A DNA stretch of 64,000 bases, from assembly GCA_964350165.1 (NCBI GenBank), contig CAYGJA010000004.1:7638-71637 (forward strand). The letters run 5' to 3'. This DNA comes from an uncultured Candidatus Saccharibacteria bacterium (GTDB lineage Bacteria; Patescibacteriota; Minisyncoccia; Phycocordibacterales; UBA1006). Below, piece by piece: positions 42,156 to 58,816 of this stretch (position 1 is its first letter; each line of letters opens with the position of its first letter). The position numbers and the translations under genes were made by a program. Below the pieces are notes generated by a model. It had not been told where the DNA came from. It ran no database searches and was given only the letters and a program-made list of their open reading frames with translations.

Positions 42156-43103
42156 ATGCAGGATTTATGCAAGATTATAGCGGTCCTGGTGACACTACCG
42201 GCTATATTTTTGAAAATTTTCCTTCTGATATACTTTAGGCATATGCTTGAAAAAAACATTTTACATGAACAACTAAAGGCAACCTCCCCTAAGAACAAGG
42301 ATGATGATATGGAAAGAGGGTTTTTCCTTGAGGACTCAGAAAATGTCGACCAGAACCCCGAAGGCTTGACGCTCAAGAATAAGATTCACGCACTTCTCCA
42401 TTCATCGGTCGAAAAAGATCAGGAGGAAGGATTGACGCTGATGTCAGAATGGCTTCAAAAAATTCAGGTCACATATCAAAGTGTACTTAATCAAAAAAAG
42501 CGCAAGGAAATGATAAGGCAAATCACGCGAAGTGAGGACTTCGCAGAGGGCAACCTGATGGTTCATCAGGTTCAAATACAATATATTAAGGATCTTATAG
42601 ATGTGGTCGACAATGATTCTCTGAAGCAAAAACTCCAGAAGCAGCTTACCCTTATCGAATACAGTTTTGCGGCGCTTCAATATATCCGTGAATTCAACAT
42701 ACACACTCAGGCTCGTTACAGTTGGCGCAATCCAGCCCGCTGGATTGAGAAAATAGTTTGGACGAGTGCTTCTGGTATAGGTACTACTGGCCTTGGTGTC
42801 ACCATAGGTGCCGTGATGCAGATGGTTAATACCGGTAATTTCTACGAGGCCGCCGGCGTTCTTTTTGGGGCTGGCGTTGCTGCGCAGATGGTTTTTGGTG
42901 AAATAAACAAGTTTGACGCAACCTTGCGCTTTAATAAAAAAATTAAAGAGATGTTGGATTTGAGTAAAATAGCACCTGATGAAATTGAGGGTGACTTAGA
43001 GGATTGGCAAAAAGAATATGAATCAAAGATTCAGATACTGCTATCTCGCGTTAGTACTTTGCGATCGTATAACGATTTTGAAAATGCACCTCGAGAGCTT
43101 TAA
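42156..43103 (+). CDS. Hypothetical protein with N-terminal TM helix, central coiled-coil and Gly-zipper segment
   Basis: GIGTTGLGVTIGAVMQMVNTGNFYEAAGVLFGAGVAAQ is a GxxxG-rich amphipathic region; no family recognised. Confidence 0.35.
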   Translation: MQDLCKIIAVLVTLPAIFLKIFLLIYFRHMLEKNILHEQLKATSPKNKDDDMERGFFLEDSENVDQNPEGLTLKNKIHALLHSSVEKDQEEGLTLMSEWLQKIQVTYQSVLNQKKRKEMIRQITRSEDFAEGNLMVHQVQIQYIKDLIDVVDNDSLKQKLQKQLTLIEYSFAALQYIREFNIHTQARYSWRNPARWIEKIVWTSASGIGTTGLGVTIGAVMQMVNTGNFYEAAGVLFGAGVAAQMVFGEINKFDATLRFNKKIKEMLDLSKIAPDEIEGDLEDWQKEYESKIQILLSRVSTLRSYNDFENAPREL

Positions 43104-43109
43104 GGCTTC

Positions 43110-43619
43110 TTATTTTTTCTTGATTGAGATCAGATAATTAAAAATTTCTAACATCAAATCATTGTCTTCTCTTTCTTCTAGTGCCATCACCGCTTCTTTG
43201 ATTGTAAAAAACTTTCGCTCCGTCACCTCTAACTGCTCCCATTCATCATCTGAAAGCATTTTGATAATGGTTGAATACGTAAATGGTAGTACACTTTTGG
43301 GCGGATAGGGCGAGCTTTCGTCATTGTGCTCAATGGTCATATAGCCAAATAGCTTTGGTTCTGTTATTTCAACACCACCTTCTTCTTTGGCCTCTCTCTC
43401 CATGGCTTCAGGCCAAGTTTCTTCCCCTTCAATGTGTCCACCGAGCGGGTTCCACCAGCCATGTTTATCAAAAATTAACAAGACCTGGTTGTTTTCTGAA
43501 AAAGGAAATGTGAAAGGGGTGGTTATATTTACATCTTCAGGAATTTCGTTTGTTGCCCGAAAACCACAAATATAGTCAACGCCTTTTCTCTTGAATGTAT
43601 AGTAAGGAAATTTCTTCAT
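43110..43619 (-). CDS. NUDIX hydrolase
   Basis: Nudix box GGHIEGEETWPEAMEREAKEEGGV. Confidence 0.7.
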   Translation of the reverse strand: MKKFPYYTFKRKGVDYICGFRATNEIPEDVNITTPFTFPFSENNQVLLIFDKHGWWNPLGGHIEGEETWPEAMEREAKEEGGVEITEPKLFGYMTIEHNDESSPYPPKSVLPFTYSTIIKMLSDDEWEQLEVTERKFFTIKEAVMALEEREDNDLMLEIFNYLISIKKK

Positions 43620-43662
43620 GTAATTATTTAGAAAGATAACTTAAGGCACTTTTGATGCCACA

Positions 43663-44220
43663 CTACGAGCTCTTTGCTAGTAATCTTTTTTTGAGTTCAT
43701 GCCTCAGCACAAGGTGTGGATTTATTTTCTGTGTTTCAGTGATTACTTTTTCTAGTTTCAACATGCGCTTTTTTGTTCTACGGGCTGACGCAAGGAATGT
43801 CTGACCGTTTTCATTCGAGAAAACAATGTAATCTTTTTTGTTTATTTTAGGAAATAGTAGCTCAAGCATCCAAACAACGAGACCCAAAAGAAGCCCTTCG
43901 CTACCTCCTGAGTTTTGCTGGACGCTCTCAATCTCAATTTTAGTAATGCTGGAGAGTCGTATCATTTTGCCCCAAAATTCACTGCCAGAACTAAGTAGAC
44001 ATACTTTTCCATTCATCATAGATAACGTATTGATTGGAAGCACTGCCCCAATTACAAGAAATACCATAGCAGCGAATACCACAAAAACTCCCCACGGGCG
44101 ACTATGGTGCTCAGGAGTCCAATTACTGAAATTTATAATTAAATAAATACCAATCGGGACAAGTATGAGCCCGATGGAAACGAGCCAAGATTTTATTTTG
44201 TTTACTCTAATAAAGTCCAT
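43663..44220 (-). CDS. Hypothetical membrane protein (2 N-terminal TM helices)
   Basis: ORF only; lies immediately downstream of the OLD-family gene on the same strand, after a 126-bp gap. Confidence 0.35.
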   Translation of the reverse strand: MDFIRVNKIKSWLVSIGLILVPIGIYLIINFSNWTPEHHSRPWGVFVVFAAMVFLVIGAVLPINTLSMMNGKVCLLSSGSEFWGKMIRLSSITKIEIESVQQNSGGSEGLLLGLVVWMLELLFPKINKKDYIVFSNENGQTFLASARRTKKRMLKLEKVITETQKINPHLVLRHELKKRLLAKSS

Positions 44221-44346
44221 AATTTGATTATAACAATCTTAATGCAAACACCACTGTCTTTCTTTAGTTCGGAACACCCCTCAGGCGCCCTCCAAAACCC
44301 TTTGTTTACAACACTTTAAATTCTAGTGACCCCATTAAGTCCAATA

Positions 44347-46365
44347 TTAGAGAGTCCTTTTGTTTGAACCATCAATGAACTCATGTAAAGACATTAATAG
44401 TTTTTTTGTTATGTCTGGAAGCGATTCAAAGTTAATTTCTTCAGCTTTGTACATTTCAAGTAGTAACGTAGTAACCTCTAAGGCAATTGTTTTTTTTCTG
44501 ACTCCAGATGCAATACATTCAATACTATCCTTTTTATAGTATTCTAGTTTTCTTCGCTTGTCTTTTTGAGACAAAATATTGTTTTTTAGTAGAGTTCCAA
44601 TTTTTTCTTTATCAAGCCCATCATTAAAAGCTTTTTCATTTTTAAGGGCATCGCTTCTTATTTTGAGTCCTGATTTATCACTAATCTTACTATTCAAATA
44701 ACGGTACCAAACAGTGAATGGTATTAGGTTTTCTATTTCAACATGTCCGTCAAAGAAGCTCTTGCCTAACAACTTCTTCAAAGCTAGTAGCTTTTCTTTA
44801 TTTGTTTGGAGTCGTGCATCCCCTGCAGATTTACCTAGATAGCTCAAGTCGTTATCTGCTACTACAAAGTTACTTTTATGTAATGCCCCAACGTGAACAG
44901 AAGTATCTAAATGAATCACGTCTTCAGTTTCTTTAAAGTCAAAGTTATCTCTATTTATACCTCCATACTCACAGAATGCGTAGTGAGCGTCTTCTTTGTA
45001 TCTCCAATCTACCCCCTCAGAACCTTTATAAATTTCTAGTAGTGCTCGGAGGTATATTCGGTCTGTTACTCCCTCAACCCAAATGATTGAATTTGTTAGA
45101 AAGATTGAAGAGTTTCTGATTCCGAGCAAGTTTTCAATATTGCTTCTGGGGGTAACCTCATCAATCAAAAAATTTTTGTTGTTGTCTTCATCTCTAAAGG
45201 GTTCAAAAGAAAAGATGCTAATGTCTTCCTCATGGTCGAAAAGTAGGTCCAAAAAATGATTGGAATGGGTTGTTGCGAAAATAGTAGCGTTGGGAAAGCT
45301 GAGATAAGACTCAACAAGCCTCCTTTGCATTGATGGATGTAGGGTTAGTTCAGGCTCTTCAACGCACAAAATAACTGGTTCATCAGAATGCATAAACAAA
45401 GGAAATGTGGCACAGATAATAGTCTGAATACCGTCTCCTAATTCAAAAACCGGTTTTTCATCATCTCCAAGTTGAACCAATAAAGAGTCCTTTTTAATTT
45501 CTGGAATGAGGGTTATGCCTTCGGGGAAAAACTCTCGAGTTAGAAAGTCTTGAAATTCACCCACCTTATTCCGTTCTTCTTGTTTACCTAGAAGCATCCG
45601 TTTTATCTCGTTGAATATCCCAAGCCCTGTGAATATTGTTTTTGTAGGGTTATCTCCAAATATATTTACTGAGTCACGTGGTGCTGGATCATCGTCAGAT
45701 TTACTGAAATAATCTTTGACGGTCCGTTCCGCATAGCAATCATACTGAATACAGTTTGATGGAGGTACTCTATTTGATTCATGAAAGTCGTAAATATTGT
45801 TGTCATAGCTCTCTTTTACCAAAGGTCTAAGACCACGTAAAATAGGTATATAGATATGATGTGGATTCCAGTTTTTTTCTTTAAATCCAGAGTAAGGAAG
45901 CTCTGATTTTATCTTTCCAACCAACTCTTCACAAAACTGTTTATCATTAATTCCATAAGGAGCTAACTTATATGCGGGATTTTTTCGTGACTTCTCCTCC
46001 CATTCTTGGACTTTTTTTGATAGTGTTGTTGCCCAGCCATACCCGCCCTTCCAAGAGGTTAATTCAATCAACTGGTCTACGTAAGGAAAGTTTTTGTTGC
46101 TAATTGCTTCCGGGTACTTTTCTTTGTACTCACTTGTAATTCTAATAAGTGCTTGTAGATTTTTCTCGGATTTATCAAAAATAACATGGTCGCTTTTTTC
46201 AAAAACACCCCTTAAGAAGAAACTTTTCCCTGAGTTATTTTTACCAACAAAAATATTTATTCTTTTGCAGTTTTTCAGCACCTCAGGGTCATTACTTGAT
46301 GCCTGGGATACAGTGTAACGAGATTCTACTGTTTTTATGCCGATAACTGGGTTTTTCATATACAA
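44347..46365 (-). CDS. OLD-family ATP-dependent endonuclease (N-terminal ABC/AAA_21-type ATPase + C-terminal TOPRIM)
   Basis: Walker A FVGKNNSGKS; ABC-signature-like ELGDGIQ; Walker B VILCVEEPELTLHP; H-loop FATTHS; TOPRIM IIWVEGVTDRIYL and DxD (VVADNDLS). 672 aa; very AT-rich coding sequence. Confidence 0.75.
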   Translation of the reverse strand: MYMKNPVIGIKTVESRYTVSQASSNDPEVLKNCKRINIFVGKNNSGKSFFLRGVFEKSDHVIFDKSEKNLQALIRITSEYKEKYPEAISNKNFPYVDQLIELTSWKGGYGWATTLSKKVQEWEEKSRKNPAYKLAPYGINDKQFCEELVGKIKSELPYSGFKEKNWNPHHIYIPILRGLRPLVKESYDNNIYDFHESNRVPPSNCIQYDCYAERTVKDYFSKSDDDPAPRDSVNIFGDNPTKTIFTGLGIFNEIKRMLLGKQEERNKVGEFQDFLTREFFPEGITLIPEIKKDSLLVQLGDDEKPVFELGDGIQTIICATFPLFMHSDEPVILCVEEPELTLHPSMQRRLVESYLSFPNATIFATTHSNHFLDLLFDHEEDISIFSFEPFRDEDNNKNFLIDEVTPRSNIENLLGIRNSSIFLTNSIIWVEGVTDRIYLRALLEIYKGSEGVDWRYKEDAHYAFCEYGGINRDNFDFKETEDVIHLDTSVHVGALHKSNFVVADNDLSYLGKSAGDARLQTNKEKLLALKKLLGKSFFDGHVEIENLIPFTVWYRYLNSKISDKSGLKIRSDALKNEKAFNDGLDKEKIGTLLKNNILSQKDKRRKLEYYKKDSIECIASGVRKKTIALEVTTLLLEMYKAEEINFESLPDITKKLLMSLHEFIDGSNKRTL

Positions 46366-46615
46366 AGGGTATCTTTTTTTGATGTAGTAGTAAAACTTTC
46401 TCTAATCCATTAGGCAATCCTTCAAAACTCAAAATTGTTATAATCAAACTAATGACCAATACAGAACAACATGCATTAACACTATTACTCAAGGAAAACC
46501 ACCTTGGTGAGCCTTCTCGTGCTCGAACCAAGCAGACTCATTACAGAGTAAGGTTTTTTAAGTATCTAAATAGTATTGTAAACAACCCCTCTCGAGCGTC
46601 GTGAGAAGAATATTC

Positions 46616-47720
46616 TTATCGCAAGATTTTTTGGAAACTTTTTGTTTCTGGACTTACGAAAGAATTTCTCGGTGTATCTCTTTTTTCGAGAAAATTACCT
46701 ATATATTTTTTGAACTTATAGTCGTTGACGTCTTTTAATTGTTTCAATAAATCACAGTACTCACTATTGTGAGTACTAATATTTACCTGAATATGATCAC
46801 TATTGTGAGGCAATATATAATAGATTATAGCGGCATGATCTTCAAAGATGATTTTTTGTTTGAGTAAGTCTGTCTTAGGGTTTAAGATTCCTTGTGCAAA
46901 AAAAATATCTTTAGTTTTAACAACACGTGAAATCGTGATAAGTGAGTCATGATTACCATTTTTTATAATGGCCCAAATTTTCATTAGTAAATCATGTTTA
47001 AAAACATATCTTATATATCCATGTATAAAATGATCAAGTGATATTATATTATCTTTAGAATCTACTCCAGTATGTCTTATCCTCAATTTTGTTATGGATG
47101 GTGTTGCATAGATTATCTGCTGGGCCATTGCTAAATGTAAACGACTAAATTGATATTGATAAGCTGCTACACGGAAAAAATGTAGTAATACATTGTTTTG
47201 ATTGTTGATATTATGATGTACATCATCAATTGGCCTAAATAAATTATTATCGCATTCTTTACAGAATACATGATAGCCAATTTCATTATTGATTCCAGCT
47301 AATGATAATTTCTTACTACCCTCATCATCAATAATGTACCATCCGCACTTATTAGAATTAAAGTATTTTTTAAGTAAAGCTTCACCAAATATATGCGACC
47401 TTATTGTTTCTTTAGTACACCCAGGGGCTGCACAAAAACTAAATTTATTTTGAAAATCAGATTCCATCTTTGAGATAAAAGTCATTGGCACGTTTGCGAC
47501 ATTAAAATTCTTATTTTTTGAAAAATTAATCAAATGACTTAAGAATCCGTCATTAATCCAATAATTAGATTTAATTGAACAACAACTGCCGTATTTTTTT
47601 GTGCTACCGCAAAAGCATAAGTCTTCATCGCTGATACCGGTCCTCTTTTCTAGAATTTTATTTATTTTTTGTATATCAGAATCACCTATTTTCACACACT
47701 TAATTATAAACAAAATACAC
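46616..47720 (-). CDS. Cys-rich protein with SEC-C zinc-binding motif, partner of the OLD-family nuclease (function unknown)
   Basis: CFCGSTKKYGSCCS matches the SEC-C consensus (CPCGSGKKYKxCC). Additional Cys/His clusters: CAAPGC...SH and HVFCKECDNN. The ATG start of the long ORF (47800) falls inside a GC-rich tRNA-derived repeat, so a TTG/GTG start near 47700-47720 after the hairpin is more likely. Confidence 0.5.
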
Positions 47721-47741
47721 CTTATTACAGGTGTATTTTTG
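47711..47741. terminator. Hairpin (acacc-tgtaataa-ggtgt) flanked by A/T runs, bidirectional terminator-like
   Basis: Seen directly; separates the tRNA-Glu region from the AT-rich cassette. Confidence 0.4.
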
Positions 47742-47788
47742 CAAGAGGCCTTTTGACCCTTCTCGAGCGCTCGAACTAGCGCTCGTGT

Positions 47789-47809
47789 TGGTGATCCCAC
47801 GGAGAATCG
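47789..47809. repeat. 21-bp direct repeat of the tRNA-Glu 3' end (tggtgatcccacggagaatcg), att-like
   Basis: Identical to 47990..48010 inside tRNA-Glu, and ends with the CCA-bearing acceptor end. Confidence 0.7.
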
Positions 47810-47989
47810 GGGTCAAGTTTCTAAATTCATTTCCTCGCAAGCTCGTCATTCATTAAGAACTTCCTCCCCGGACTCGCTCCCCAATGGTCGGATTGCCATC
47901 CTCGCATTGGGGCCCCGCTCCGTCTTTCGATTCCCCGCATAATCAACACACGAAAAGCCCCCATGCGATGCATGAGGGCTTAACGTGTG

Positions 47990-48064
47990 TGGTGATCCCA
48001 CGGAGAATCGAACTCCGATTTCCAGGATGAAAACCTGGCGTCCTAACCGTTAGACGATGGGACC
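47990..48064 (-). tRNA. tRNA-Glu (anticodon TTC), CCA encoded
   Basis: Acceptor ggtccca/tgggatc, D-arm gtc-taacggttag-gac, anticodon stem ccagg/cctgg, loop ttTTCat, T-loop ttcgatt. Confidence 0.9.
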
Positions 48065-48111: not shown

Positions 48112-51100
48112 TTATTGTGATTCCGTTGATGTTGAGGTTTCTTCTACTGGAACGGTGCTTGCTTCTTGGGGAGGGGTTTCTGATACTTCTTCTACTGGTT
48201 CCTCTGCCGGCTCAACGATTGTTTCCTCTTCTGTGACTACCACCGGTTCCTCTGTTGCTGGCTCTTGGGTATCCAGGCCGTCATTAGTGCTGGTAGCTAG
48301 CGGTTCGGTCGATGTGGCGCCGGTTTCTACTGATGGTTCTTGTGTGGGGTTGCTTTCTTCTGAGGAGGAAGAATTATCTGTTGTTTCAACCGAACTTGCC
48401 CCCATAACCTGAGGCTCTGGTTCACCAAAGACTTCCCGGAAGTCATCTTCGGTGACACAAACATCACCAACACAAAGCTCGGTAGTGGCTACTTTTGGTG
48501 CCAGAATGCCTCGACTAAATTCAATCAAACCTTCATAAACACCGACGATATAGCTCCCCACCTGATCAGCGCTTTCACCGACCCTGCTACTCAACTCCTG
48601 AATTGCTCCAATCAAAGCAGGTACCAAATCAGCAAAACGAACCGAGATATAATCTTCGGGGTTATCAGTCTCTCTGATGTACTGAGGAGCAATGGTTTTT
48701 ACTTCCTGAGCGATCAAACCAAAAGGAATGGGTCCATAATCGTGCCTAGGATTGTCTGGAAGCCATTCAAAGGACTTGATATCAAATTGACCAAGAAAAG
48801 CCAAGGCGCTGTCTGTTGGAGTGGCGATGTTGGTCTTGAGGCGTTGATCAGAAACAGTGGTGTCAATCGTTTCGTTTCCAACATAAAGTGTCGCTGATCC
48901 AGCTCCATTAGAAGCATCATCAATAAGGTTGTTGGTAGAAGTGGCCCCAATGGTAATACCACCCGTTGTCTGAGTCTGGCCATTAATACGAACAATGTCA
49001 TTATCAAACTCTCCATAAAGCAAAGGAGTGGTGGAGGAGGAGTTATCTAAATAAAGTTTGTTGGAACCGGTTTCGGAGTAGCCGGCTTGGTAACCCAGAA
49101 AAAGATTGCTAGAACCAGTACTATTAGAATAACCTGCCTGATAGCCAAGAGCGGTGGTGCTAGCTCCGGTGGTGTTGTTGTAGCCAGAATGGTAACCAAT
49201 AAAAATGTTAGCATCAGCGATATTGTTTCTACCAGCGGAAGATCCAATCATTATATTACGATCCCCCTCTGTTCCGATTGAATTGACACGCTCTCCGATT
49301 AAAACGTTATCTGCTCCAGTAACATTAACAGCACCAGCCATTCTACCCAAAAAAACGTTTTGTGAAGCTAGATTATTTGCGCCAGCCGCCCAACCAAAAA
49401 AAGAATTTGCTGAGCTGGCAGAAGTAAGCCCGGCCCCTGCCGCCACACCAACCGCCAAATTAGAACCACTATTTGTACGAATAATGCTAGTTCCATTCAT
49501 GCTTAGCTCAGTTCCGCTGGCGTTTACGGTTGCGTACCCGCTCAAATCTAAAGCCTCAGACCAGAATAAGTTCCCTGTCGCATCAGAAGCCAGCAGTTGT
49601 CCAGACGTGGTAGCGTCTGTGTCTGGAAGGACCCAGATTTGGTTGCCACTCAAAGCGGGAGCTTCGAAACCAACGTAGTTGGAGCCTTCGTAGAAGCGAA
49701 GTTCGTTGTTGGAGCCGCCAAGGTTAAGGGTGCCGTTGATGGTGACTAGGTCATTATCAAACTCTCCATAAATCAAAGGAGTGGTGGAGGAGGAGTTATC
49801 TAAGTAGAGTTTGTTGGAACCGGTTTCGGAATATCCGGCTTGGTAACCAAGGAAGAGATTGTTGGAGCCGGCCGTATTAGTGAAACCAGACTGGTAGCCA
49901 AGGAAAAGGTTCGAGTTACCAGTAATATTGTTGACACCAGACTGGTTTCCAATAAAGAGGTTCAGGGTTCCGGAGGTATTGTCGTAACCGGAATAATATC
50001 CCAAGAAGATATTGTCATCAGCGTCGGTGCTGGCACCAGAAAGAGTACCCAGGAAAAGGTTTCGATCACCAGACACCCCAAGGACTCCGGCACCGGAACC
50101 ATGACCAAGCATTATGTTGTCATCTCCGTCACGATAATAAGAAACATTGTAGCCAACATAGAAGTTTCTGGATCCAGAATTATTTCCGTAACCAGTACAA
50201 GGACCAATGAAGATATTCTGTCCACCACTAATGTTTCCAGCTCCGGTACAGAGAGCACCAACGAAGGTGTTGTTGACACCAGTAGTGTTGACACGACCAG
50301 AGTCTTCACCGACAAAGGTGTTACCCCAACCAGTGGTGTTGAAGCCACCGGCATCATCACCAATGAAGGTATTATAACTACCAGCGTTACCAGTACCGTT
50401 GGCACCGCCGGCGTTTTTTCCGATAGCGGTAAATGAGCCCTTGGTGTTGCCTTTACCAGCTTGGTAGCCGATGGCTACGATGGAGCTGGCGGTGTTGCTT
50501 GCACCGGCGTTGTAGCCAAGAAAAGTGTTGTTGCTGGTAGAGGTGGCGCCGTTGCCGGCGTTGGTGCCAACATACGTATTATTAGAGCCTACTGTGTTGG
50601 CATATCCAGACTGATAACCCAGGAAAAGATTACTAGAACCAGTACTATTAGAATAACCTGCCTGATAGCCAAGAGCGGTGGTGCTAGTTCCAGTGGTATT
50701 ACTATAGCCAGCTTCATAGCCCAAAAAAGAAAGACCAGCTCCACTAGTGTTGGCGTCACCAGTACGATAACCAACGAAAATATTTCCATCACTAGTAGTC
50801 TTAGAACCAGCACGAGAACCGACGGCGACGTTTCTGTTGCCGTTTCCAGAACTGCCAGCCGCATACCCGATGAGGACATTGTCCCAACCAGTGGTGTTGG
50901 CACTACCAGAATTTGATCCCATAAATACATTTTGCCAACCGGTGTTACTGATTCCGGACCCATAACCAAAGAAGTTGTTGAGCGCTCCTCCGGTTCCAGA
51001 CAACGTACCAACAGAGGTTACTGATCCAGCGGAAGTGAGTGCTCTTACTCCATTCATGCTTAGCTCAGTTCCGCTGGCGTTTACTCCCGCATATCTACTC

Positions 51101-51540
51101 GAATCAAGACCATCAAAATAATCTGCTTCTCGAGCAGCAGGAACCATACCCAACGCGATAATACCAACTGGCGTACTATATGAAGGAGAGCCACCGGTAC
51201 CATCAACAGTAATACGCAGATAAAGTGTCTGATTGAGGTCAATCCCAACCAAAGTAACATCCGACCCAAGAGTTACGTTAAAAATACCGTTCGTAACAGT
51301 GGCTTGCCCTGCATTGGCGGTGTCGTGATATTCGGTCCAGATAACCGTGCTACAGTCGCTGGCAGAACAAAGTTCGAATTTGATATTGTAATTACCATTG
51401 GCGGTACTACCCGCGTCTTTGAGTTTTCCCTGAAAATTAAGAGTTTGAGAAAAATTGGAAGCCTGAAGGGAAAAAGCAGGAATCAAAAAGAAACCTATAA
51501 CAAGCAGGAACAGGCACCACTTTTTTTGGGCAGAATTCAT
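48112..51540 (-). CDS. Large secreted tail-fibre-like / adhesin-like protein with C-terminal peptidase-S74 intramolecular chaperone domain
   Basis: Signal peptide MNSAQKKWCLFLLVIGFFLIPAFSLQA. Hundreds of residues of about 14-aa Gly/Asn/Ser/Thr/Tyr repeats (NxxxGYxAGxxxTGSxN). Conserved SDQRLKTNI...FEW block of the S74 chaperone. Acidic Thr/Glu/Pro-rich C-terminal tail. 1142 aa. Confidence 0.7.
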   Translation of the reverse strand: MNSAQKKWCLFLLVIGFFLIPAFSLQASNFSQTLNFQGKLKDAGSTANGNYNIKFELCSASDCSTVIWTEYHDTANAGQATVTNGIFNVTLGSDVTLVGIDLNQTLYLRITVDGTGGSPSYSTPVGIIALGMVPAAREADYFDGLDSSRYAGVNASGTELSMNGVRALTSAGSVTSVGTLSGTGGALNNFFGYGSGISNTGWQNVFMGSNSGSANTTGWDNVLIGYAAGSSGNGNRNVAVGSRAGSKTTSDGNIFVGYRTGDANTSGAGLSFLGYEAGYSNTTGTSTTALGYQAGYSNSTGSSNLFLGYQSGYANTVGSNNTYVGTNAGNGATSTSNNTFLGYNAGASNTASSIVAIGYQAGKGNTKGSFTAIGKNAGGANGTGNAGSYNTFIGDDAGGFNTTGWGNTFVGEDSGRVNTTGVNNTFVGALCTGAGNISGGQNIFIGPCTGYGNNSGSRNFYVGYNVSYYRDGDDNIMLGHGSGAGVLGVSGDRNLFLGTLSGASTDADDNIFLGYYSGYDNTSGTLNLFIGNQSGVNNITGNSNLFLGYQSGFTNTAGSNNLFLGYQAGYSETGSNKLYLDNSSSTTPLIYGEFDNDLVTINGTLNLGGSNNELRFYEGSNYVGFEAPALSGNQIWVLPDTDATTSGQLLASDATGNLFWSEALDLSGYATVNASGTELSMNGTSIIRTNSGSNLAVGVAAGAGLTSASSANSFFGWAAGANNLASQNVFLGRMAGAVNVTGADNVLIGERVNSIGTEGDRNIMIGSSAGRNNIADANIFIGYHSGYNNTTGASTTALGYQAGYSNSTGSSNLFLGYQAGYSETGSNKLYLDNSSSTTPLLYGEFDNDIVRINGQTQTTGGITIGATSTNNLIDDASNGAGSATLYVGNETIDTTVSDQRLKTNIATPTDSALAFLGQFDIKSFEWLPDNPRHDYGPIPFGLIAQEVKTIAPQYIRETDNPEDYISVRFADLVPALIGAIQELSSRVGESADQVGSYIVGVYEGLIEFSRGILAPKVATTELCVGDVCVTEDDFREVFGEPEPQVMGASSVETTDNSSSSEESNPTQEPSVETGATSTEPLATSTNDGLDTQEPATEEPVVVTEEETIVEPAEEPVEEVSETPPQEASTVPVEETSTSTESQ

Positions 51541-51631
51541 ACCAGCATTGTACTACGAAAAACAATGCCTCATCTTTAAAAAGTGGATTCGGATTGTAAT
51601 CTTTTTCGGAATAAATTATGATGAAAATCTC

Positions 51632-51705
51632 GGGCGATTAGCTCAGTTGGCTAGAGCGCATCATTGACGTTGATGAGGTCACAGGTTCGAGCCCTGTATC
51701 GCCCA
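51632..51705 (+). tRNA. tRNA-Val (anticodon GAC)
   Basis: Acceptor gggcgat/atcgccc, D-arm gctc-agttggct-agagc, anticodon stem catca/tgatg, loop ttGACgt, T-loop ttcgagc. Confidence 0.9.
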
Positions 51706-51717
51706 CTTGCAACATGA

Positions 51718-51746
51718 GGCCCCATTCCAAAAGAATGGGGCTTTTT
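51718..51746 (+). terminator. Rho-independent terminator after tRNA-Val
   Basis: ggccccattc-caaaa-gaatggggc followed by TTTTT. Confidence 0.7.
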
Positions 51747-51846
51747 GTTACATAGGCGCACAGGGCTCGAACCGTAGGTTCCGATTTTTAAGGAGTTTGC
51801 GACTATAAAAATCGTGAATTTCGGAACAAGCGCAGCTTGTGAGAGG

Positions 51847-51865
51847 CGAGCCCTGTATCGCCCAC
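51847..51865. repeat. 19-bp direct repeat of the tRNA-Val 3' end (cgagccctgtatcgcccac), att-like
   Basis: Identical to 51688..51706 at the 3' end of tRNA-Val. Confidence 0.65.
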
Positions 51866-51910
51866 CCAAAAACCTTTGCAGAAAAGATTCTTTTCCTGCA
51901 TATTAAAAAA

Positions 51911-53071
51911 ATGAAAATCCTAGCCATTGAAACCAGTTGTGACGAAACCTCGATTGCGATCATCGAGGCTATTTCTGATACTTCGATTCGGGTTCTGTCC
52001 CACGTCGTCCTCTCTCAGGTGGCTATTCACGCCGAATATGGCGGTGTCTACCCCGCCCTAGCCAAACGCGAACATGCCAAAAACCTCGTCCCCGTTCTGG
52101 AACAAGCCCTCCGCGAAGCCAATCTCTACCAAGCAGGCCAGACTGCCATGCCGGCCAACATCGAACAAATCCTAGAACGAGAACCGGATTTGTTTGGGAA
52201 TTTTACGGCTTTTTTGAAAAAGACAGCGATGCCGGGTATCGATCAGATTGTGGTTACCCAAGGCCCGGGATTGGAGCCGGCCCTGTGGGTTGGTGTTAAT
52301 TTTGCCAAAGCTCTGGCGGCGGCTTGGAATGTTCCGCTGACCCCGGTCAACCATATGGAGGGGCATATTCTGTCTGTCCTCATCCAAGAAAAGACCGATT
52401 CGGAAATAACACTGGCAGATATCACCTACCCTGCCTTGGCCTTACTTGTCTCCGGCGGACACACCGAAATCGTCCTCATGGACGAACCAGGAAATTATCG
52501 CCTGATTGGCAAAACCCAAGACGATGCTGCCGGTGAAGCCTTTGACAAAGCCGCCCGCATCCTGGACCTCCCTTATCCTGGCGGGCCAGAAATCAGTCGC
52601 CTGGCCGAGCAGGGCCTCCCCAACGAAGCCATCAATCTCCCTCGCCCCATGATTGATTCGGGCACTTATGATTTTTCTTTTTCTGGGCTCAAGACAGCCG
52701 CGCTGTATCTGGTGCGAGACCTGGGCGGTATCGAAACATTGTCTGACCAAACCAAAGCCGATATTGCCCGAGAATTCCAAAATGCGGCCCTGGATGTACT
52801 TTCCAAAAAAACCTTGGCGGCTTTTACTGAATTTTCTTGCCAGACCCTGATTGTCGGTGGCGGAGTATCTGCTAATCGAGCCCTACGCAAGATGCTTCGA
52901 GAAAAACTAACAGCCATCGACCCTGCGGCCAAGTTACTATTGCCTGGCCCAGGACTTTCTACCGACAATGCCCTCATGATTGCGCTGGTTGGCCTGTTCC
53001 AGATTAAATCCGGCAAACTTCCGACAACTGATTTTGTTGCAGAGGGAAGGCTTTCTATTGCCAATAACTAA
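51911..53071 (+). CDS. tsaD: tRNA N6-adenosine threonylcarbamoyltransferase TsaD (Kae1/Gcp)
   Basis: N-terminal MKILAIETSCDETSIAII, His-rich metal site (VNHMEGH) and conserved C-terminal blocks; start placed at Met 51911 after the repeat. Confidence 0.9.
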   Translation: MKILAIETSCDETSIAIIEAISDTSIRVLSHVVLSQVAIHAEYGGVYPALAKREHAKNLVPVLEQALREANLYQAGQTAMPANIEQILEREPDLFGNFTAFLKKTAMPGIDQIVVTQGPGLEPALWVGVNFAKALAAAWNVPLTPVNHMEGHILSVLIQEKTDSEITLADITYPALALLVSGGHTEIVLMDEPGNYRLIGKTQDDAAGEAFDKAARILDLPYPGGPEISRLAEQGLPNEAINLPRPMIDSGTYDFSFSGLKTAALYLVRDLGGIETLSDQTKADIAREFQNAALDVLSKKTLAAFTEFSCQTLIVGGGVSANRALRKMLREKLTAIDPAAKLLLPGPGLSTDNALMIALVGLFQIKSGKLPTTDFVAEGRLSIANN

Positions 53072-53085
53072 TTCAAAATTACTAA

Positions 53086-54285
53086 ATGAAGAGCTCGAAC
53101 ATAAAGGGGAATATTTGGAAATTTGCAGTCCACTCCATCACAAACAAGAGGACCTATATGACCTTTTTAAGTATCTTCTTTTTAACCATGCCCGACGCGA
53201 CAACAAAGATGGTGGGACTGCTAACTCTAGCCGGGCAATTGGCTGGATTTATTTTCGAAGTACCGAGCGGGTATGTCTCGGACAGAATAGGACACAGAAA
53301 TGCTCTACTAATTGCTCGCATAGCTATGGTTCTTTCTACTGCTTGCTACATCTTTGCAGACAATACCGCCTGGTTTTTTGCTGGTTCAATACTACTTGCA
53401 ATTGGTTTAGCATTTGTCAGTGGTACCGGCAGCGCTCTCATGCATAACACACTTACCGCTATCAAAAGAGAAACCGAATATGCAAAAATTATGGGCCGCA
53501 TCAAATCGCTAGGTTTTGGGGTACCGGTTATCTTTATACTATTGCTCCCTGTTTTAGCCGAATCAAGTTTTCAGATTGCTTTTATTGTTGCGCTAGTTAT
53601 CGATATAATCGGCCTCCTTGCTGTTATTGCCATGGCAGAACCAGACTCAAAAAAATACGAAGTTGAAGAGGTGAAACCAGAAACCTTTTTACAAAATGCA
53701 AAGGAAATGAAAAAACTAGGCTGGCTTCCCTACGTTATTATTACTCAACTTATTTTTGCTCTTTCTTTTGGGGCAACAGCAGGTTTCAAAAATCCTTTTC
53801 AAGAGTCTCTCGGCTTCTCTATTTCGATGCTCGGAGTTTTGTGGGCAGCTTCAAGAGTTTTTATTTCTGCCCTCTTGCTCACAAACGGATGGGTCTACAA
53901 GACATTTACCTACAAGCAATACATTACTTTGCACAGCACAGTATATGCTCTGAGCTTTATGGGAATCCTATTCACTAACAACATGTGGATTGTAGCCAGC
54001 TTGTTCCTAATTGGAAATGTATTTGGCTGGGGGCTCACTGCCGCAAGTGATCAATATACCCTGGAATTCATTGGTAAAAGTAAATCAAAAGCAACCCTGA
54101 TATCAATCAGTCAACTTATCCAAAAAATATTCGCCGCCGGTACTGGCTTGCTAATGGGAATACTAGTCTTCAACTTAGGTTATAACAAAGCATACTTTGT
54201 TATCGGGCTTTTGATTCTTTTGACTGTTTTTACGGCAATAGTGCTTCTGCCTCGGTTTCATCCACAAGAACCAAAAACAGCATAA
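53086..54285 (+). CDS. MFS transporter
   Basis: About 12 predicted TM helices; MFS-like loop motif (GYVSDRIGHRNALLIA). Confidence 0.75.
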   Translation: MKSSNIKGNIWKFAVHSITNKRTYMTFLSIFFLTMPDATTKMVGLLTLAGQLAGFIFEVPSGYVSDRIGHRNALLIARIAMVLSTACYIFADNTAWFFAGSILLAIGLAFVSGTGSALMHNTLTAIKRETEYAKIMGRIKSLGFGVPVIFILLLPVLAESSFQIAFIVALVIDIIGLLAVIAMAEPDSKKYEVEEVKPETFLQNAKEMKKLGWLPYVIITQLIFALSFGATAGFKNPFQESLGFSISMLGVLWAASRVFISALLLTNGWVYKTFTYKQYITLHSTVYALSFMGILFTNNMWIVASLFLIGNVFGWGLTAASDQYTLEFIGKSKSKATLISISQLIQKIFAAGTGLLMGILVFNLGYNKAYFVIGLLILLTVFTAIVLLPRFHPQEPKTA

Positions 54286-54411
54286 TTTTCTTCGTACGAG
54301 TCATCGTAGCCCTGCCCCATTTCGCACAGCAAGCTTCTTTTTAACGACGACAAAATCAAACCCGCGAAAAACGGGTTTTATTTTTACAAGAATTCGTCTA
54401 AACTAATCACC

Positions 54412-56622
54412 ATGAACAACCTTCCAGAAAAATTCACCAAACCATACGACGCGGCTACCACCGAGGACCGTATTTACACAATGTGGGAAGAGTCCGGCTA
54501 TTTTAACCCTGATATATGCATCGAAAAAGGTGTCTGTGCAGCTGATGCCGAACATTTTTCAATTGTCTTGCCTCCTCCAAACGTAACTGGAGAGCTCCAC
54601 CTGGGGCACTCGTTTGAGGGGGCGACTCAGGATGCCATGATTCGCTTTGAGCGTATGCGGGGCAAGCGCGCGCTCTGGATACCGGGTACCGACCATGCCG
54701 CCATTGCAACCCAGTCAAAATTTGAAAAAGAGCTCTACAAAAAAGAAAAGAAATCTCGTCATGATTTTTCTCGAGAAGAATTCTTTGACATGGTTCAGGA
54801 ATTTGCTTTCGCCAATCAGGCAACCATCCTAGGCCAGCTCCGCAAAATGGGGTCTTCGCTAGATTGGAGCCGTCTCGCCTTTACCTTGGACAAAGAACGT
54901 GAAAAAGCGGTATTTGAGGCTTTCAAACGGATGCACGAAGCCGGTCTTGTCTACCAAAAAGACCGCGTAGTGAACTGGGACCCCAAAGGCCAAACCACTG
55001 TTTCTGATGACGAAGTAGAGCGAGAAGAAAGAAAGGCAACCATGTATACCTTTAAATACAGCCACGACTTCCCATTCGCCATTGCCACCACTCGCCCCGA
55101 AACTAAAGTCGGCGACACCGCCGTGGCTGTACACCCAGATGATGCTCGTTACCAGCAATACATCGGTCAAGAATATTCCTTTGAATTTGCTGGCGAACCA
55201 GTAACTGTAAAAATAATTGCAGACGAAGTAGTCGAGCCAGAGTTTGGCGTCGGCGCACTTGGAGTTACCCCCGCCCATTCTGTTACAGACTGGGAAATAG
55301 CCGAACGACACGGCCTTCCACTAAAACAGGTCATTAATGAATACGGCAAAATGACCGTCGGCATGGAAGGGGTAGTGGGAGAAAAAACAGCTGTTGCCCG
55401 CGAAGCTGTGGCCGAATGGTTGCGCAGCGAAGGTCTGATGATCCAAGAAGAAGAAATCGAACAAAGCATCGGTGTCGCCGAACGTACCGGTGGAATCATC
55501 GAACCGTTGCCAAAATTACAATGGTGGATCAAGGTGAACAAGACGTTCCCCTACCCTCACGACACCTTGACTGGCATAAAGAAAAACCAAGAAGTATCCC
55601 TCAAAGACCTAATGCTCCATGTCGTAGAATCGGGTCAAACCGAGATTGTCCCAGAGCGTTTTGCCAAAACCTATCGCCACTGGATAACAAATCTTCGTGA
55701 CTGGAACATTAGCCGCCAAATAATGTACGGCCACCAAGTCCCTGCTTGGTACAAGGATTCTGAAATAAAAATATCAGCAGAGTCTCCAGGAGAAGGCTGG
55801 ATTCAAGACTCTGACACTTTGGACACTTGGTTTTCTTCTGGATTATGGACCTTTTCAACTCTAGGCTGGCCAAACTCAGACAACGAATTAGCTAATTTCC
55901 ACCCTACTAATGTAGTGAATCCTGGTTACGAAATACTCCCCCTTTGGGTTTCTCGTATGATTATGATGAGCACTTTTCTGGTAGGACAAGTGCCTTTCAA
56001 GACGGCATTCATTCACGGAATCTTGCGTAATAAAAATGGCCAAAAGTTCAGCAAATCTCTGAATAATGGTATTAACCCGCTCGAGGTGATTGAAAAATAC
56101 GGCACCGACGCCTTGCGTATGTCGCTTATTATTGGGACAACACCTGGTCAGGATGTTACTTTTGATGAACAAAAAGTAAAAGCCTATCGGAAATTCGCCA
56201 ACAAGCTTTGGAACATTACTCGTTTTGTGCTGGAAAACACAGCAGATTATGACCATGCCGGACATGTGCCAGAAATCATTGGTAAGTTTGTGAACCATAG
56301 CAAAACCTTGGAAAATTTAACCAAGGAAATCACTGACGAAATGTCTGATTACAAATATTATCTCGTCGGAGAAAAGCTCTATCATTATGTCTGGCACACT
56401 CTAGCAGACGAAGTCTTAGAAGAACTAAAATCTATCGTCCAAGACGAATCACACCCCGATCGGCTGGCCGCCCAAGCTACATTGTGGGAACTGCTGACCA
56501 CCAGCCTCAAGCTCCTCCATCCTTTTATGCCTTTTGTGACCGAAGAAATCTGGCAGTCTCTCCCAGCGCGTCCAGGCCGAGAGCAACTGATGATCACCAG
56601 CTGGCCAACCAAACAAAAATAA
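54412..56622 (+). CDS. valS: Valine--tRNA ligase, C-terminally shortened form
   Basis: PPPNVTGELHLGHS (HIGH), editing-domain block TTRPETKVGDTAVAVHPDDARY, KFSKS (KMSKS), LLHPFMPFVTEEIWQ; 736 aa with no C-terminal coiled-coil. Confidence 0.85.
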   Translation: MNNLPEKFTKPYDAATTEDRIYTMWEESGYFNPDICIEKGVCAADAEHFSIVLPPPNVTGELHLGHSFEGATQDAMIRFERMRGKRALWIPGTDHAAIATQSKFEKELYKKEKKSRHDFSREEFFDMVQEFAFANQATILGQLRKMGSSLDWSRLAFTLDKEREKAVFEAFKRMHEAGLVYQKDRVVNWDPKGQTTVSDDEVEREERKATMYTFKYSHDFPFAIATTRPETKVGDTAVAVHPDDARYQQYIGQEYSFEFAGEPVTVKIIADEVVEPEFGVGALGVTPAHSVTDWEIAERHGLPLKQVINEYGKMTVGMEGVVGEKTAVAREAVAEWLRSEGLMIQEEEIEQSIGVAERTGGIIEPLPKLQWWIKVNKTFPYPHDTLTGIKKNQEVSLKDLMLHVVESGQTEIVPERFAKTYRHWITNLRDWNISRQIMYGHQVPAWYKDSEIKISAESPGEGWIQDSDTLDTWFSSGLWTFSTLGWPNSDNELANFHPTNVVNPGYEILPLWVSRMIMMSTFLVGQVPFKTAFIHGILRNKNGQKFSKSLNNGINPLEVIEKYGTDALRMSLIIGTTPGQDVTFDEQKVKAYRKFANKLWNITRFVLENTADYDHAGHVPEIIGKFVNHSKTLENLTKEITDEMSDYKYYLVGEKLYHYVWHTLADEVLEELKSIVQDESHPDRLAAQATLWELLTTSLKLLHPFMPFVTEEIWQSLPARPGREQLMITSWPTKQK

Positions 56623-56643
56623 CTTCGGTTATACTACAGGGAC

Positions 56644-57333
56644 ATGTCGATCCCTCCCCAAGAAATAGTAGTGGCTATCATCGCCGGCGTCGTACCCACC
56701 GGACTTTGGTTGTGGTTTTGGCTTTCCGAAGACCATCAACATCCGGAGCCCAGAACCATGCTGATTGCTAGTTTTTTGATTGGCGCCTTAGCGATAGTCT
56801 TAACCCTGCCACCTCAAGAAATCGCCAACACTCTGGTTGGAAACCAGACCTCGTTTCATTTTTTCCTAATTAATTCCGGCATCGAAGAAATAATAAAATT
56901 CGGCCTAGTGTTCCTTTTTATCGCTTTCACTCCCTTTGTTGACGAACCTATCGACTATGCCATCTATCTCATCACCGGAGCCCTAGGGTTTGCAGCGCTA
57001 GAGAACACACTCTATCTTATCGACCCAGTCCGGTCTGTTTTTTCGGATTCAAGTCTTCGAATCATGAGTCTGCGTTTTTTGGGATCAACCCTGCTTCATG
57101 CAGCCATGGCAGCGTTGCTAGGATTAGGTCTGGGCTTAACCTGGCACAAAAAAAAGCGATATCGCTTTTTGGTTTTTGTAGCCACTCTTATCCTCGTTGT
57201 GACTTTGCATGCTGCCTTTAACTTTTTTATAATTAATGGCACAGATAGTTATGTGCTGTTATCTTTGGTGGTTCTCTGGGTCATTGCTATACTAACTATG
57301 TATTTTTTTGAACACGTAAAACATATCAGATAA
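56644..57333 (+). CDS. PrsW-family intramembrane metalloprotease
   Basis: Motifs GIEEIIKFG (EExxK), GFAALEN, HAAFNF in successive TM helices. Confidence 0.65.
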   Translation: MSIPPQEIVVAIIAGVVPTGLWLWFWLSEDHQHPEPRTMLIASFLIGALAIVLTLPPQEIANTLVGNQTSFHFFLINSGIEEIIKFGLVFLFIAFTPFVDEPIDYAIYLITGALGFAALENTLYLIDPVRSVFSDSSLRIMSLRFLGSTLLHAAMAALLGLGLGLTWHKKKRYRFLVFVATLILVVTLHAAFNFFIINGTDSYVLLSLVVLWVIAILTMYFFEHVKHIR

Positions 57334-57348
57334 TCGTACCTTTCGACC

Positions 57349-57855
57349 ATGTATAAAACCCCTCGCCGCAAATCATTATTCCTTCGTATTTTTGATACTG
57401 TTCGGCTGCGCGAAGATGACGATTTGGATAATGATATTTATGACGAAGAAGACGAGGACCTGGACCTTGCTCCTGATCACCTAGTAGAAGACACCACAGA
57501 AGATGACTATGTCGAAGAAGACCCCGAAGGAGAACTCGGCATTGACATGTACCAAACCCACAACGCCATTGTAATTCAGGCTATTACTGCGGGCGTCAAG
57601 CTGAGTGATATTGATATTGATTTGACCCGAGAACACGTAACCATTCGCGGCACCCGAACCCCTACCCACCGCGTAAGCGAAGAAGATTTTTTCAATCAAG
57701 AAATCTATTGGGGTGCTTTTTCTCGCAGTGTTCAGTTGCCGTTCGAAGTAGACATCGACCAAGCCGAAGCCATCGAAGACCACGGCCTACTCACCATCAC
57801 CCTGCCAAAACTCAACAAAGACCGTCGAGCAGCCCTCAAAGTAAAATCAATCTAA
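57349..57855 (+). CDS. Hsp20/alpha-crystallin small heat-shock protein with acidic N-terminal extension
   Basis: Alpha-crystallin domain (VDMYQT...ITLPK) after an Asp/Glu-rich 60-aa N-terminus. Confidence 0.8.
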   Translation: MYKTPRRKSLFLRIFDTVRLREDDDLDNDIYDEEDEDLDLAPDHLVEDTTEDDYVEEDPEGELGIDMYQTHNAIVIQAITAGVKLSDIDIDLTREHVTIRGTRTPTHRVSEEDFFNQEIYWGAFSRSVQLPFEVDIDQAEAIEDHGLLTITLPKLNKDRRAALKVKSI

Positions 57856-57868
57856 GTAAACCTATTTG

Positions 57869-57912
57869 ATCCAAAACAAAAACCTCACAGATGTGAGGTT
57901 TTTGTTTTGGAT
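57869..57912. terminator. Perfect 20-bp-arm inverted repeat (atccaaaacaaaaacctcaca-gatg-tgtgaggtttttgttttggat), bidirectional terminator
   Basis: Seen directly between the convergent Hsp20 gene and the 57945..58550 gene. Confidence 0.7.
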
Positions 57913-57944
57913 TTACGGCAAAACATCAAAGAGCAAAGCCCTCG

Positions 57945-58550: not shown

Positions 58551-58742
58551 GTTGATATTTAACGTAATTATTAATAAACACATTAATTATGTTAACACAT
58601 GGCCGTTTATCGAAAAGATCACTTCACCCTAGATTAAGAACAGAGTAAGGCGCACTGCGATACCCTATTCACCAAGAATTGTTAGTGAAACGGTCTTTGG
58701 AGGGCGGACTTGCCCACATGTTCTCAAGAAATATATTCCTTT

Positions 58743-58816
58743 GTGCTTGGGGGCGGACTCGAACCGCCGACCCTTCGCTCTTCAGGCGAATGCTCTAACC
58801 AACTGAGCTACCCAAG
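58743..58816 (-). tRNA. tRNA-Phe (anticodon GAA)
   Basis: Acceptor gcttggg/cccaagc, anticodon stem ttcgc/gcgaa, loop ctGAAga, T-loop ttcgagt. Confidence 0.9.

Follow-up and report, generated by a model that had tools for sequence, protein, structure and literature searches.

The gene examined here occupies positions 48112..51540 of the minus strand of the window, by which we mean the whole 64-kb stretch of contig CAYGJA010000004.1, from an uncultured bacterium of the candidate phyla radiation (CPR), that was analysed. We favour, with moderate confidence, the view that it is a resident accessory gene of the chromosome encoding a secreted, presumably trimeric surface adhesin that is processed by an S74 chaperone and resembles the MAT fibres of Bdellovibrio. 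Adhesion to another cell, retention at the surface, self-cleavage and trimerisation would be expected of it by analogy with S74 proteins and with MAT fibres. The list of open reading frames (ORFs) gives an ATG-start frame of 1142 amino acids (aa), and the identical protein recurs among public sequences as P0001, on an NCBI contig of 81 kb. A first-pass annotation of the window had described a 1142-aa gene between two tRNAs, and the ORF, together with the tRNA-Glu and tRNA-Val that ARAGORN places on its flanks, agrees with that description. The gene and the parts of its protein, referred to below as the fibre, are as follows.

48112..51540, minus strand: fibre gene, 1142 codons plus stop (ORF list)
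51460..51540, minus strand: signal peptide, aa 1-27, MNSAQKK followed by a hydrophobic core and SLQA/S, the slash marking the cleavage site (sequence inspection)
51124..51459, minus strand: N-terminal beta-sandwich, MAT_N-like, presumed cell-surface anchor, aa 28-139; about 85% identical to the orthologue
49810..50979, minus strand: repeat array 1, aa 188-577, 23 units of 16-18 aa (autocorrelation, position-specific scoring matrix (PSSM) scan, model and family consensus)
49720..49821, minus strand: cap motif 1, aa 574-607 (ETGSNKLYLDNSSSTTPLIYGEFDNDLVTINGTL), a family-wide consensus within DNA repeat R2
49552..49719, minus strand: junction module, aa 608-663 (ELRFYEGSNYVGFEAP...WVLPDTDATTSGQLLASDATGNLFW), a gap in the alignment with the orthologue P0002
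49057..49461, minus strand: repeat array 2, aa 694-828, 8 units (PSSM scan; pLDDT 78-90)
48967..49068, minus strand: cap motif 2, aa 825-858, second copy of the cap
48853..48966, minus strand: short tip, aa 859-896, the mature C-terminus after predicted cleavage; 74-82% identity to P0002; low pLDDT in the monomer model
48496..48852, minus strand: S74 intramolecular chaperone/autoprotease domain, aa 897 to about 1015 (PF13884, invariant S897/K902, Foldseek); long helix 969-1009
48406..48495, minus strand: conserved post-chaperone extension, aa 1016-1045 (ILAPKVATTELCVGDVCVTEDDFREVFG), also in P0002 and P0003; modelled as a small hairpin plus helix
48115..48405, minus strand: polyacidic Thr/Glu/Ser/Pro-rich tail, aa 1046-1142 (composition); disordered in the model

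The evidence for export lies at the N-terminus. Inspection of the sequence gives a basic n-region, a 16-residue hydrophobic core and the SLQA/S site, the model has a helix at residues 3-22, and the orthologue has a canonical AQA/S; these Sec-type features uphold the signal peptide that the first-pass annotation had proposed. An N-terminal hydrophobic segment is also present in 86 of 120 family members. The domain that follows was modelled by AlphaFold2 as an all-beta sandwich of seven strands (pLDDT 80.6, pTM 0.73), and in about 40 of the 120 best relatives it is likewise placed right after the signal peptide. Its sole NCBIfam match is to Bdello_MAT_N (NF053851; E 2.2e-6, 22.3-27.5 bits against a cut-off of 60). 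The same profile was the best or only NCBIfam match in all seven N-terminal fragments compared, the fibre's own and six from relatives in the CPR and in the Fibrobacterota-Chlorobiota-Bacteroidota (FCB) group, with E-values of 5e-5 to 1e-11 and scores that are all below 60 bits. Because the N-domain falls under the Bdello_MAT_N threshold, we call the fibre MAT-like and not a member of the MAT family. A sequence search of the PDB returned nothing, either with the whole protein or with a profile of the N-domain, and no viral structure matched the N-domain at E<=1e-3. Many of the FCB relatives carry PF26696 in precomputed Pfam assignments; a local Pfam scan of those proteins did not report it.

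Processing by an S74 chaperone is suggested by the C-terminal part of the protein. Peptidase_S74 (PF13884) is the sole Pfam family detected; its match spans aa 897-954 with an E-value of 2.4e-11 and a score of 44.2 bits, the cut-off being 22, and SDQRLK at aa 897-902 provides the S-D-x-x-x-K motif. An alignment of 61 family members has only nine invariant columns, S897 and K902 among them, so that the S74 chaperone named in the first-pass annotation is supported both by the profile search and by the conservation of its dyad. The region is confident in the AlphaFold2 model. Foldseek returned as its top PDB matches the MyRF ICA domain 7dc3 (probability 1.00, target TM 0.63) together with two phage chaperones, 3gw6 and 3gud, at probabilities of 0.9-1.0; the use of the entire 1142-aa model as query kept the E-values at 7e-3 to 0.35.

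The sequence that follows the chaperone sets the fibre and some of its relatives apart. Canonical family members end about 120 aa past the catalytic Ser, in a short coiled coil and without an extension, whereas the fibre, P0002, P0003 and P0005 have 245-280 aa after the Ser, made up of the chaperone, a conserved segment and a tail. The conserved segment of the extension contains ELCVGDxCV and is diverged in P0005. Tails of these four proteins are 97-131 aa long, with 25-45 acidic and 0-3 basic residues; that of the fibre (aa 1046-1142) has 97 aa with 25 D/E and no K/R and is predicted to be disordered, in keeping with the acidic tail noticed in the first-pass annotation, and its last eight residues, ETSTSTES, are common to the orthologue. 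A phmmer search with aa 866-1051 returned 9899 proteins at E<=1e-3. The extension is present in 25 of the 150 best representatives, nearly all of those 25 have acidic tails, and the extension-bearing proteins range from 300 to 4169 aa, mostly without the MAT-like N-domain; the sole named one belongs to Candidatus Pacebacteria/Paceibacterota. The extension and polyacidic tail after the chaperone mark a subfamily of at least 25 clusters. One protein, P0351 (4169 aa, on a 568-kb NCBI contig), has a MAT-like N-domain together with the chaperone/extension/acidic-tail module, its Ser being at position 3948, and the C-terminal module is therefore joined to shafts of very different length. Since the tail lies past the cleavage site, it would leave with the chaperone.

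The wider family counts its cellular members in the thousands. The full-length search gave 2695 matches at E<=1e-5, and the 418 relatives in reference genomes are nearly all from Bacteroidota, Chlorobiota, Cloacimonadota and their allies, with one from a metagenome-assembled genome (MAG) of Patescibacteria. The NCBI label for such proteins is 'tail fiber domain-containing protein'. Relatives P0003, P0005 and P0246 have cellular gene contexts. P0003 is preceded, at 1-10001 of its locus L086, by seven large same-strand genes of unknown function (145-946 aa, with faint Big_13 and Calx-beta matches), a run that may be a surface-protein gene cluster. About 7 kb from P0246, a fibre with an acidic tail, there is a 125-aa gene (11853-12230 of locus L089) with a match to 23S_rRNA_IVP and a weak one to bAvd, an accessory protein of diversity-generating retroelements (DGRs); no reverse transcriptase was seen near P0246, which lies within a cluster of large unknown proteins, in the stretch of L089 that was fetched. 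The Saprospiraceae MAG SRP135972_co1_130 has relatives at no fewer than nine loci (L005, L006, L009, L015, L025, L041, L055, L065 and L074), a repertoire of paralogues that recalls the 21 MAT genes of Bdellovibrio.

P0002, of 1047 aa and 44% identity, is the homologue nearest to the fibre and proved informative in that it occupies the same tRNA-Glu/tRNA-Val/tsaD slot, the boundaries of which in the window are two tRNA genes.

47990..48064, minus strand: tRNA-Glu(ttc) (ARAGORN), 48 nt 3' of the fibre stop codon and on the same strand; one slot boundary
51632..51706, plus strand: tRNA-Val(gac) (ARAGORN), divergent from the fibre gene and next to tsaD; the other slot boundary

At the P0002 locus tRNA-Val and tsaD-valS-prsW-hsp20 lie on one side of the gene and tRNA-Glu on the other (97.9% over 143 nt); the tRNA-Val/tsaD arrangement is the same in L001, L002 and L003, and L083 has a tRNA-Glu in the corresponding position. 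Between the loci of the fibre and of P0002 the identity of the flanking proteins is 79-95%, against 44% for the fibre, and identity along the fibre differs from part to part: about 85% over aa 1-150, 14-55% with large indels over aa 150-860, about 75-82% over aa 860-1045 and about 40% in the tail. The first cap lies at aa 576 in the fibre, in P0002 at aa 295; only the fibre has the junction module, and the number of units, their order and the positions of the caps differ between the two proteins. These alignments show a remodelled shaft between two ends that diverged at the same pace as the genome. The sequences of the two lineages come from adjacent run accessions.

It is also clear that the slot itself is variable. 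Three further relatives, with ValS 70-81% identical, hold other cargo between tRNA-Glu, or the genes upstream, and tsaD, either an island with reverse transcriptase, methylase and GmrSD genes or small ORFs. In one of them (L082, 762-5167; ValS 81% identical) the cargo lies some kilobases upstream of tsaD and includes a 636-aa reverse transcriptase, an HTH protein, an EcoRI-type methylase and a GmrSD/HNH protein. The slot can be called a hotspot of variable cargo; two lineages have the fibre gene in it as an accessory gene. The 3' ends of the P0002 contigs L001, L002 and L003 all stop inside tRNA-Glu, and the 5' end of L088 lies inside the internal DNA repeat R3; such contig breaks suggest strain-variable sequence beyond tRNA-Glu, in addition to an internal repeat.

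On the basis of these features a sequence of events can be proposed. The fibre would be exported by the Sec system, with the signal peptide cut, as its sequence suggests, after residue 27. The S74 chaperone (aa 897 to about 1015) would then nucleate trimer folding of the shaft and, by analogy with K1F endosialidase, T5 pb1 and Bd3182, would cut itself off at S897 by means of the S897/K902 dyad. The predicted cleavage would release a fragment of 246 aa made up of chaperone, extension and polyacidic tail. The mature fibre, aa 28-896, would be held at the cell surface by its MAT_N-related N-domain and would project two arrays of 17-aa beta-repeats (23 and 8 units), each capped and with the junction module between them. 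It could thus bind a surface structure of another cell, by analogy most plausibly that of the episymbiont's host. The shaft evolves fast, presumably because recombination between repeats duplicates, deletes and converts units and modules, while the anchor and chaperone ends are kept.

Several observations weigh against this proposal. The match to Bdello_MAT_N is far under the curated 60 bits and covers profile positions 5-79 of 162. The full-length AlphaFold2 monomer model has a mean pLDDT of 66.8, and its confidence is low in the linkers, the tip and the junction module. The three relatives mentioned above lack the fibre gene in this slot; horizontal arrival of the gene is possible, given the patchy slot, the neighbouring low-GC island and an att-like repeat of the tRNA, both of which are described below. 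Phage S74 proteins usually bind their receptor at the tip, just before the cleavage site. In the fibre the tip is short (38 aa) and conserved between the orthologues, and the variable part is the shaft, which is not the canonical binding site. For this reason variable-specificity binding, if there is any, would probably occur along the arrays and not at the tip. Lastly, the fibre has no known anchor motif for retention on the cell, neither a membrane anchor nor a sortase signal nor a lipobox being visible in its sequence.

This last point leads to the alternative that the protein is secreted and not anchored, as a tailspike-like factor that binds or degrades polysaccharide of a host surface or biofilm, or as a phage decoy. 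The secreted state is supported equally well in either case, and S74 proteins do include enzymatic tailspikes such as endosialidases (PMC10769870). However, no catalytic domain was found (S74 is the only Pfam match, and no solved structure was matched by sequence), the 17-aa arrays are shaft-like and do not suggest an enzyme body, and the N-domain resembles the domain to which the attachment of MAT fibres to the surface of the predator itself is ascribed (PMC10769870). We therefore regard an unanchored protein as unlikely. A second alternative is that the protein is a structural or protective coat fibre whose variability serves the evasion of phages, host defences or grazers and not host recognition. 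It would fit a variable shaft with a conserved tip, the position of the gene beside a defence-type island with an OLD/GajA-like ATPase, and the defence cargo in the slot of L082. Nevertheless the architecture is shared with fibres that have been shown to act in prey handling (PMC10769870). Its single copy in the window is also unlike a main coat component, although this argument is weak because only 64 kb was seen. Such a role, too, appears to us improbable.

The first-pass annotation had left two choices, a prophage remnant or a domesticated surface adhesin, and the phage relatives and the gene neighbourhood help to decide between them. The repeats and C-terminus match tail spike and virion structural families of PHROGs (PHROG 4636 at 7e-37, others weaker), and homologous sequences occur in 136 phage records, 71 IMG/VR loci and 115 viral structures (E<=1e-3). 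All of these phage and viral relatives match the repeats and chaperone only, the IMG/VR loci the repeat region only, at less than 60% identity. The matches begin at aa 95 or later, nearly all of them at about aa 120 or later, and the N-domain is absent from every one; among the 136 phage records no close full-length relative was found, and none covers aa 1-187. Pfam and PHROG scans of the neighbours revealed no virion, capsid, tail, integrase or lysis gene within about 15 kb, as the first-pass annotation had remarked of phage structural genes. What lies within that distance is FtsA, FtsZ, an oxidoreductase, malic enzyme, an SPFH protein, a nucleotidyltransferase, prephenate dehydratase and a NUDIX protein, as well as TsaD, an MFS transporter, ValS, PrsW, HSP20, LepA, MurJ and one defence-type ATPase. 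The named relatives of the adjacent ValS are all from Patescibacteria or Pacebacteria, which places the window in a CPR bacterium.

A leftover tail fibre of a prophage or tailocin, integrated at a tRNA and deprived of its neighbours, would account for this homology to phage fibres, for the position of the gene between two tRNAs and beside a low-GC island with a 21-nt duplicate of the tRNA-Glu 3' end, and for its patchy presence among related genomes. Against this, a Sec-type signal peptide is unexpected in a virion protein assembled in the cytoplasm, the N-domain is of a cellular type seen in no phage or viral relative, and no genes for virions, integration or lysis are near. Moreover the GC content of the gene (0.47) is that of the genome, as opposed to 0.35 in the adjoining 43-48 kb, and a second species has an intact syntenic orthologue of full length. 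With phage matches all below 60% identity as well, a prophage remnant is very unlikely, and that suggestion of the first-pass annotation is not supported. Its other choice, the domesticated surface adhesin, stands as regards a cell-encoded surface protein, for which the signal peptide, cell-type N-domain, host-like GC, housekeeping context, orthologue and cellular family all argue; adhesion itself we infer.

Certain features of the neighbourhood deserve description in their own right. A low-GC island (0.35 against 0.44-0.47) extends over 43100-47990, directly downstream of tRNA-Glu, and contains the following ORFs as well as a hydrophobic one of 185 aa without a family match.

44347-46365, minus strand: 672-aa AAA_15/AAA_21 ATPase; best PADLOC matches AriA, GajA, ATPase-Toprim and OLD
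46616-47800, minus strand: 394-aa ORF; no Pfam, PADLOC or PHROG match; Cys cluster CFCGSTKKYGSCC

The Cys cluster of the 394-aa ORF presumably recalls the SEC-C metal-binding motif, and the real start of this ORF is probably further in, because the listed GTG overlaps a repeat copy of tRNA-Glu. That copy duplicates 21 nt of the tRNA-Glu 3' end exactly and in direct orientation (47789-47809 and 47990-48010; none expected by chance); it lies where the island ends, at a distance of 201 nt from the tRNA. The island looks like a small defence island and the repeat looks like an att-like scar of site-specific integration; a third copy that would delimit the island was sought and none was found. The tsaD ORF as listed (51839-53071, plus strand) has a GTG start and 410 aa. 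On the identical contig L088 and in the orthologue tsaD is called at 386 aa, 24 codons shorter, and from these calls the true start is probably near 51911. The fibre gene is single-copy in the window, its identity as an anti-phage defence gene was rejected because PADLOC left its protein unmatched, and a scan for promoters and terminators near it gave no signal exceeding chance.

The repeats were analysed both as protein and as DNA. The autocorrelation of the protein peaks at lag 17 (0.287) and a PSSM scan against shuffled sequence gives 31 units in total, which corrects the period of about 14 aa given in the first-pass annotation to one of 16-17 aa. The consensus of array 1 is N-x-F-x-G-Y-x-A-G-x-x-N-T-x-G-x-x, and that of the family is N-x-F-x-G-x-x-A-G-x-x-N-T-x-G-x-x; in the model array 1 has a pLDDT of 80-90 and one short strand per unit. 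Both arrays close with the cap ETGSNKLYLDNSSSTTPL(I/L)YGEFDND. The NKLYLDNSSSTTPLIYGEFDND motif, previously taken as a sign of local duplication, is not merely that, since the alignment of relatives reveals it as a capping motif throughout the family. The 56-aa junction module recurs in 11 of 268 relatives, sometimes in several copies, and had no tblastn match in the phage collection. At the DNA level three pairs of segments exceed chance.

50575..50739, minus strand: R1 copy a, aa 268-322, pairs with 49051-49215; 55-nt exact run
49051..49215, minus strand: R1 copy b, aa 776-830, pairs with 50575-50739
49711..49908, minus strand: R2 copy a, aa 545-610, pairs with 48958-49155; 30-nt exact run
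48958..49155, minus strand: R2 copy b, aa 796-861, pairs with 49711-49908
51025..51123, minus strand: R3 copy a, aa 140-172, start motif VNASGTELSMNG; 36-nt exact core 51049-51084
49468..49566, minus strand: R3 copy b, aa 659-691; core 49492-49527

The near-identical segments of the first-pass annotation are thus real, their coordinates having been off by about 10-15 nt. Copies are 73-84% identical over their tracts, in frame and with synonymous differences. At identical residues the same codon is used in 25 of 37 cases in R1 and in 35 of 49 in R2, the range across R1-R3 being 68-75%, compared with about 36% expected from codon usage and 29-43% in the ordinary 17-aa repeats. We therefore consider R1-R3 to be tracts of recent duplication or gene conversion laid over an old repeat array. 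Their arrangement divides the protein into two homologous modules, each with the start motif VNASGTELSMNG, an array and a cap, and it would appear from the sequence that module 2 is module 1 minus about 250 aa, as if recombination between SNLFLGYQxGY units had deleted them. DGR mutagenesis was rejected as the source of the near-identical repeats, the mismatches being mostly C<->T (25 of 58) and not adenine-specific; with the reverse transcriptase of L082 as the single query, tblastn found no match in the window. The earlier statement that the gene can vary by repeat recombination finds indirect support in the conversion tracts, in the apparent deletion within a module and in the different unit number and order of the orthologue. 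No variant within a population was seen, as scans of reference genomes and metagenomes returned distant relatives only (<=51% over segments) and no population alleles of the locus.

That the long repeats are artefacts of assembly, the real gene being shorter or otherwise arranged, as the first-pass annotation had allowed, is highly improbable: short-read assemblies do break here, L088 ending inside R3 and all P0002 contigs just past the gene, but the copies are not identical and keep the frame, which is open across 1142 codons, P0002 has the same layout of two modules and two caps and was assembled identically in at least three runs, and the independent assembly L088 (run ERR3534985), which is 100% identical to window 51055-58788, stops 30 nt into the 36-nt exact core of R3 (51049-51084), that is at k-1 in a graph of k=31, as expected for a true repeat.

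Little has been established about the means by which ultrasmall CPR bacteria locate their hosts and stay attached to them. Among the papers found, type IV pili are the CPR attachment system that has been addressed experimentally, and the search found no paper linking S74 fibres to the CPR. The fibre gene is a testable candidate for a second CPR attachment system, built to a plan like that of prey recognition by Bdellovibrio and of host recognition by phages. The very different shafts with conserved ends, at one locus in two sister lineages, suggest a natural experiment in specificity or evasion. A broader and much more tentative proposal is that CPR episymbionts use MAT-like S74-processed fibres for host recognition, with a recombining shaft on which reach or specificity depends and which is not the same in sister species that occur together, at one conserved slot bounded by tRNAs, and with the chaperone fragment, lengthened by the conserved Cys-containing segment and the acidic tail, as an innovation so far seen in the CPR. 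That fragment, an undescribed feature of a well-studied self-cleaving module, may have a role of its own, for example in keeping the pro-fibre soluble or non-adhesive, or in tethering it to the wall, until cleavage. Our results also imply that 'tail fiber domain-containing protein' labels in CPR and FCB genomes should not be taken as prophage markers.

Among known systems the closest to the fibre, by the view that it is a secreted MAT-like adhesin, is the S74 subgroup of Bdellovibrio MAT proteins, such as Bd3182. MAT fibres have a signal peptide, a beta-rich N-domain of about 130 aa, a trimeric fibre and exchangeable tips; 13 of the 21 Bdellovibrio MAT proteins end in S74 with SDxxxK, self-cleavage occurs in Bd3182, and related fibres are found in other bacteria, predatory or not (PMC10769870, Caulton et al. 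2024). The order of parts, from signal peptide and N-domain through a long fibre to S74 with SDxxxK, is the same in both. Both are mosaic, with conserved ends and swapped middles, and Bdellovibrio is likewise a bacterium that lives by attachment to cells. There are nevertheless clear differences. Bdellovibrio is a diderm predator and the host of the fibre is a CPR bacterium, presumably monoderm; the shaft of 17-aa N-x-F-x-G repeats and caps is unlike that of Bdellovibrio MAT; and the MAT capping-loop motif V-G-G/N-pi-x-x-P-x-x-x-L is not evident, on inspection, before S897. The chaperone fragment of the fibre is longer by a conserved segment and some 100 aa of polyacidic tail, and there is one copy in the 64-kb window as against 21 paralogues.

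With phage fibres and spikes (K1F endosialidase 3GW6, GP12 3GUD, T5 pb1 4UW8) the fibre has in common the S74 fold and Ser-Lys dyad, and many fibre proteins of phages and giant viruses have a repeat shaft homologous to its own. Whereas phage S74 fibres have an N-terminus for virion attachment, the fibre has a signal peptide and cellular N-domain and no context of virion genes; it also has no distinct receptor-binding or enzymatic domain before the cleavage site, and its post-cleavage fragment is of 246 aa compared with about 120 in phage S74 fibres. The FCB 'tail fiber domain-containing proteins' share the 17-aa repeat, the cap and S74, and about a third of them the N-domain, but they belong to diderm hosts, often with many paralogues and some with a sorting domain of the type IX secretion system (T9SS), and are without extension or acidic tail. 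The fibre was rejected as T9SS cargo, the Por_Secre_tail sorting domain of FCB relatives P0008 and P0029 being absent from it.

Trimeric autotransporter adhesins resemble the fibre in their short Gly/Asn-rich beta repeats and array-neck-array order, and two relatives bear the JGI label 'trimeric autotransporter adhesin'. These adhesins, however, have a YadA anchor, an outer-membrane barrel and a period of about 14 aa, in contrast to the 17-aa period and presumed S74-driven trimerisation of the fibre, and CPR bacteria presumably have no outer membrane. This identity was rejected, there being no Pfam match to the YadA anchor, YadA head or Hep_Hag at E<=1. The best structural match of the chaperone, MyRF ICA (7DC3), belongs to a eukaryotic membrane-bound transcription factor with which only the self-cleaving trimerisation module is common. 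Cell-encoded S74-processed fibres are a known kind of protein; what is new in the present one is its CPR setting, a shaft rebuilt within a variable slot that tRNAs bound, and the acidic tail on its chaperone fragment.

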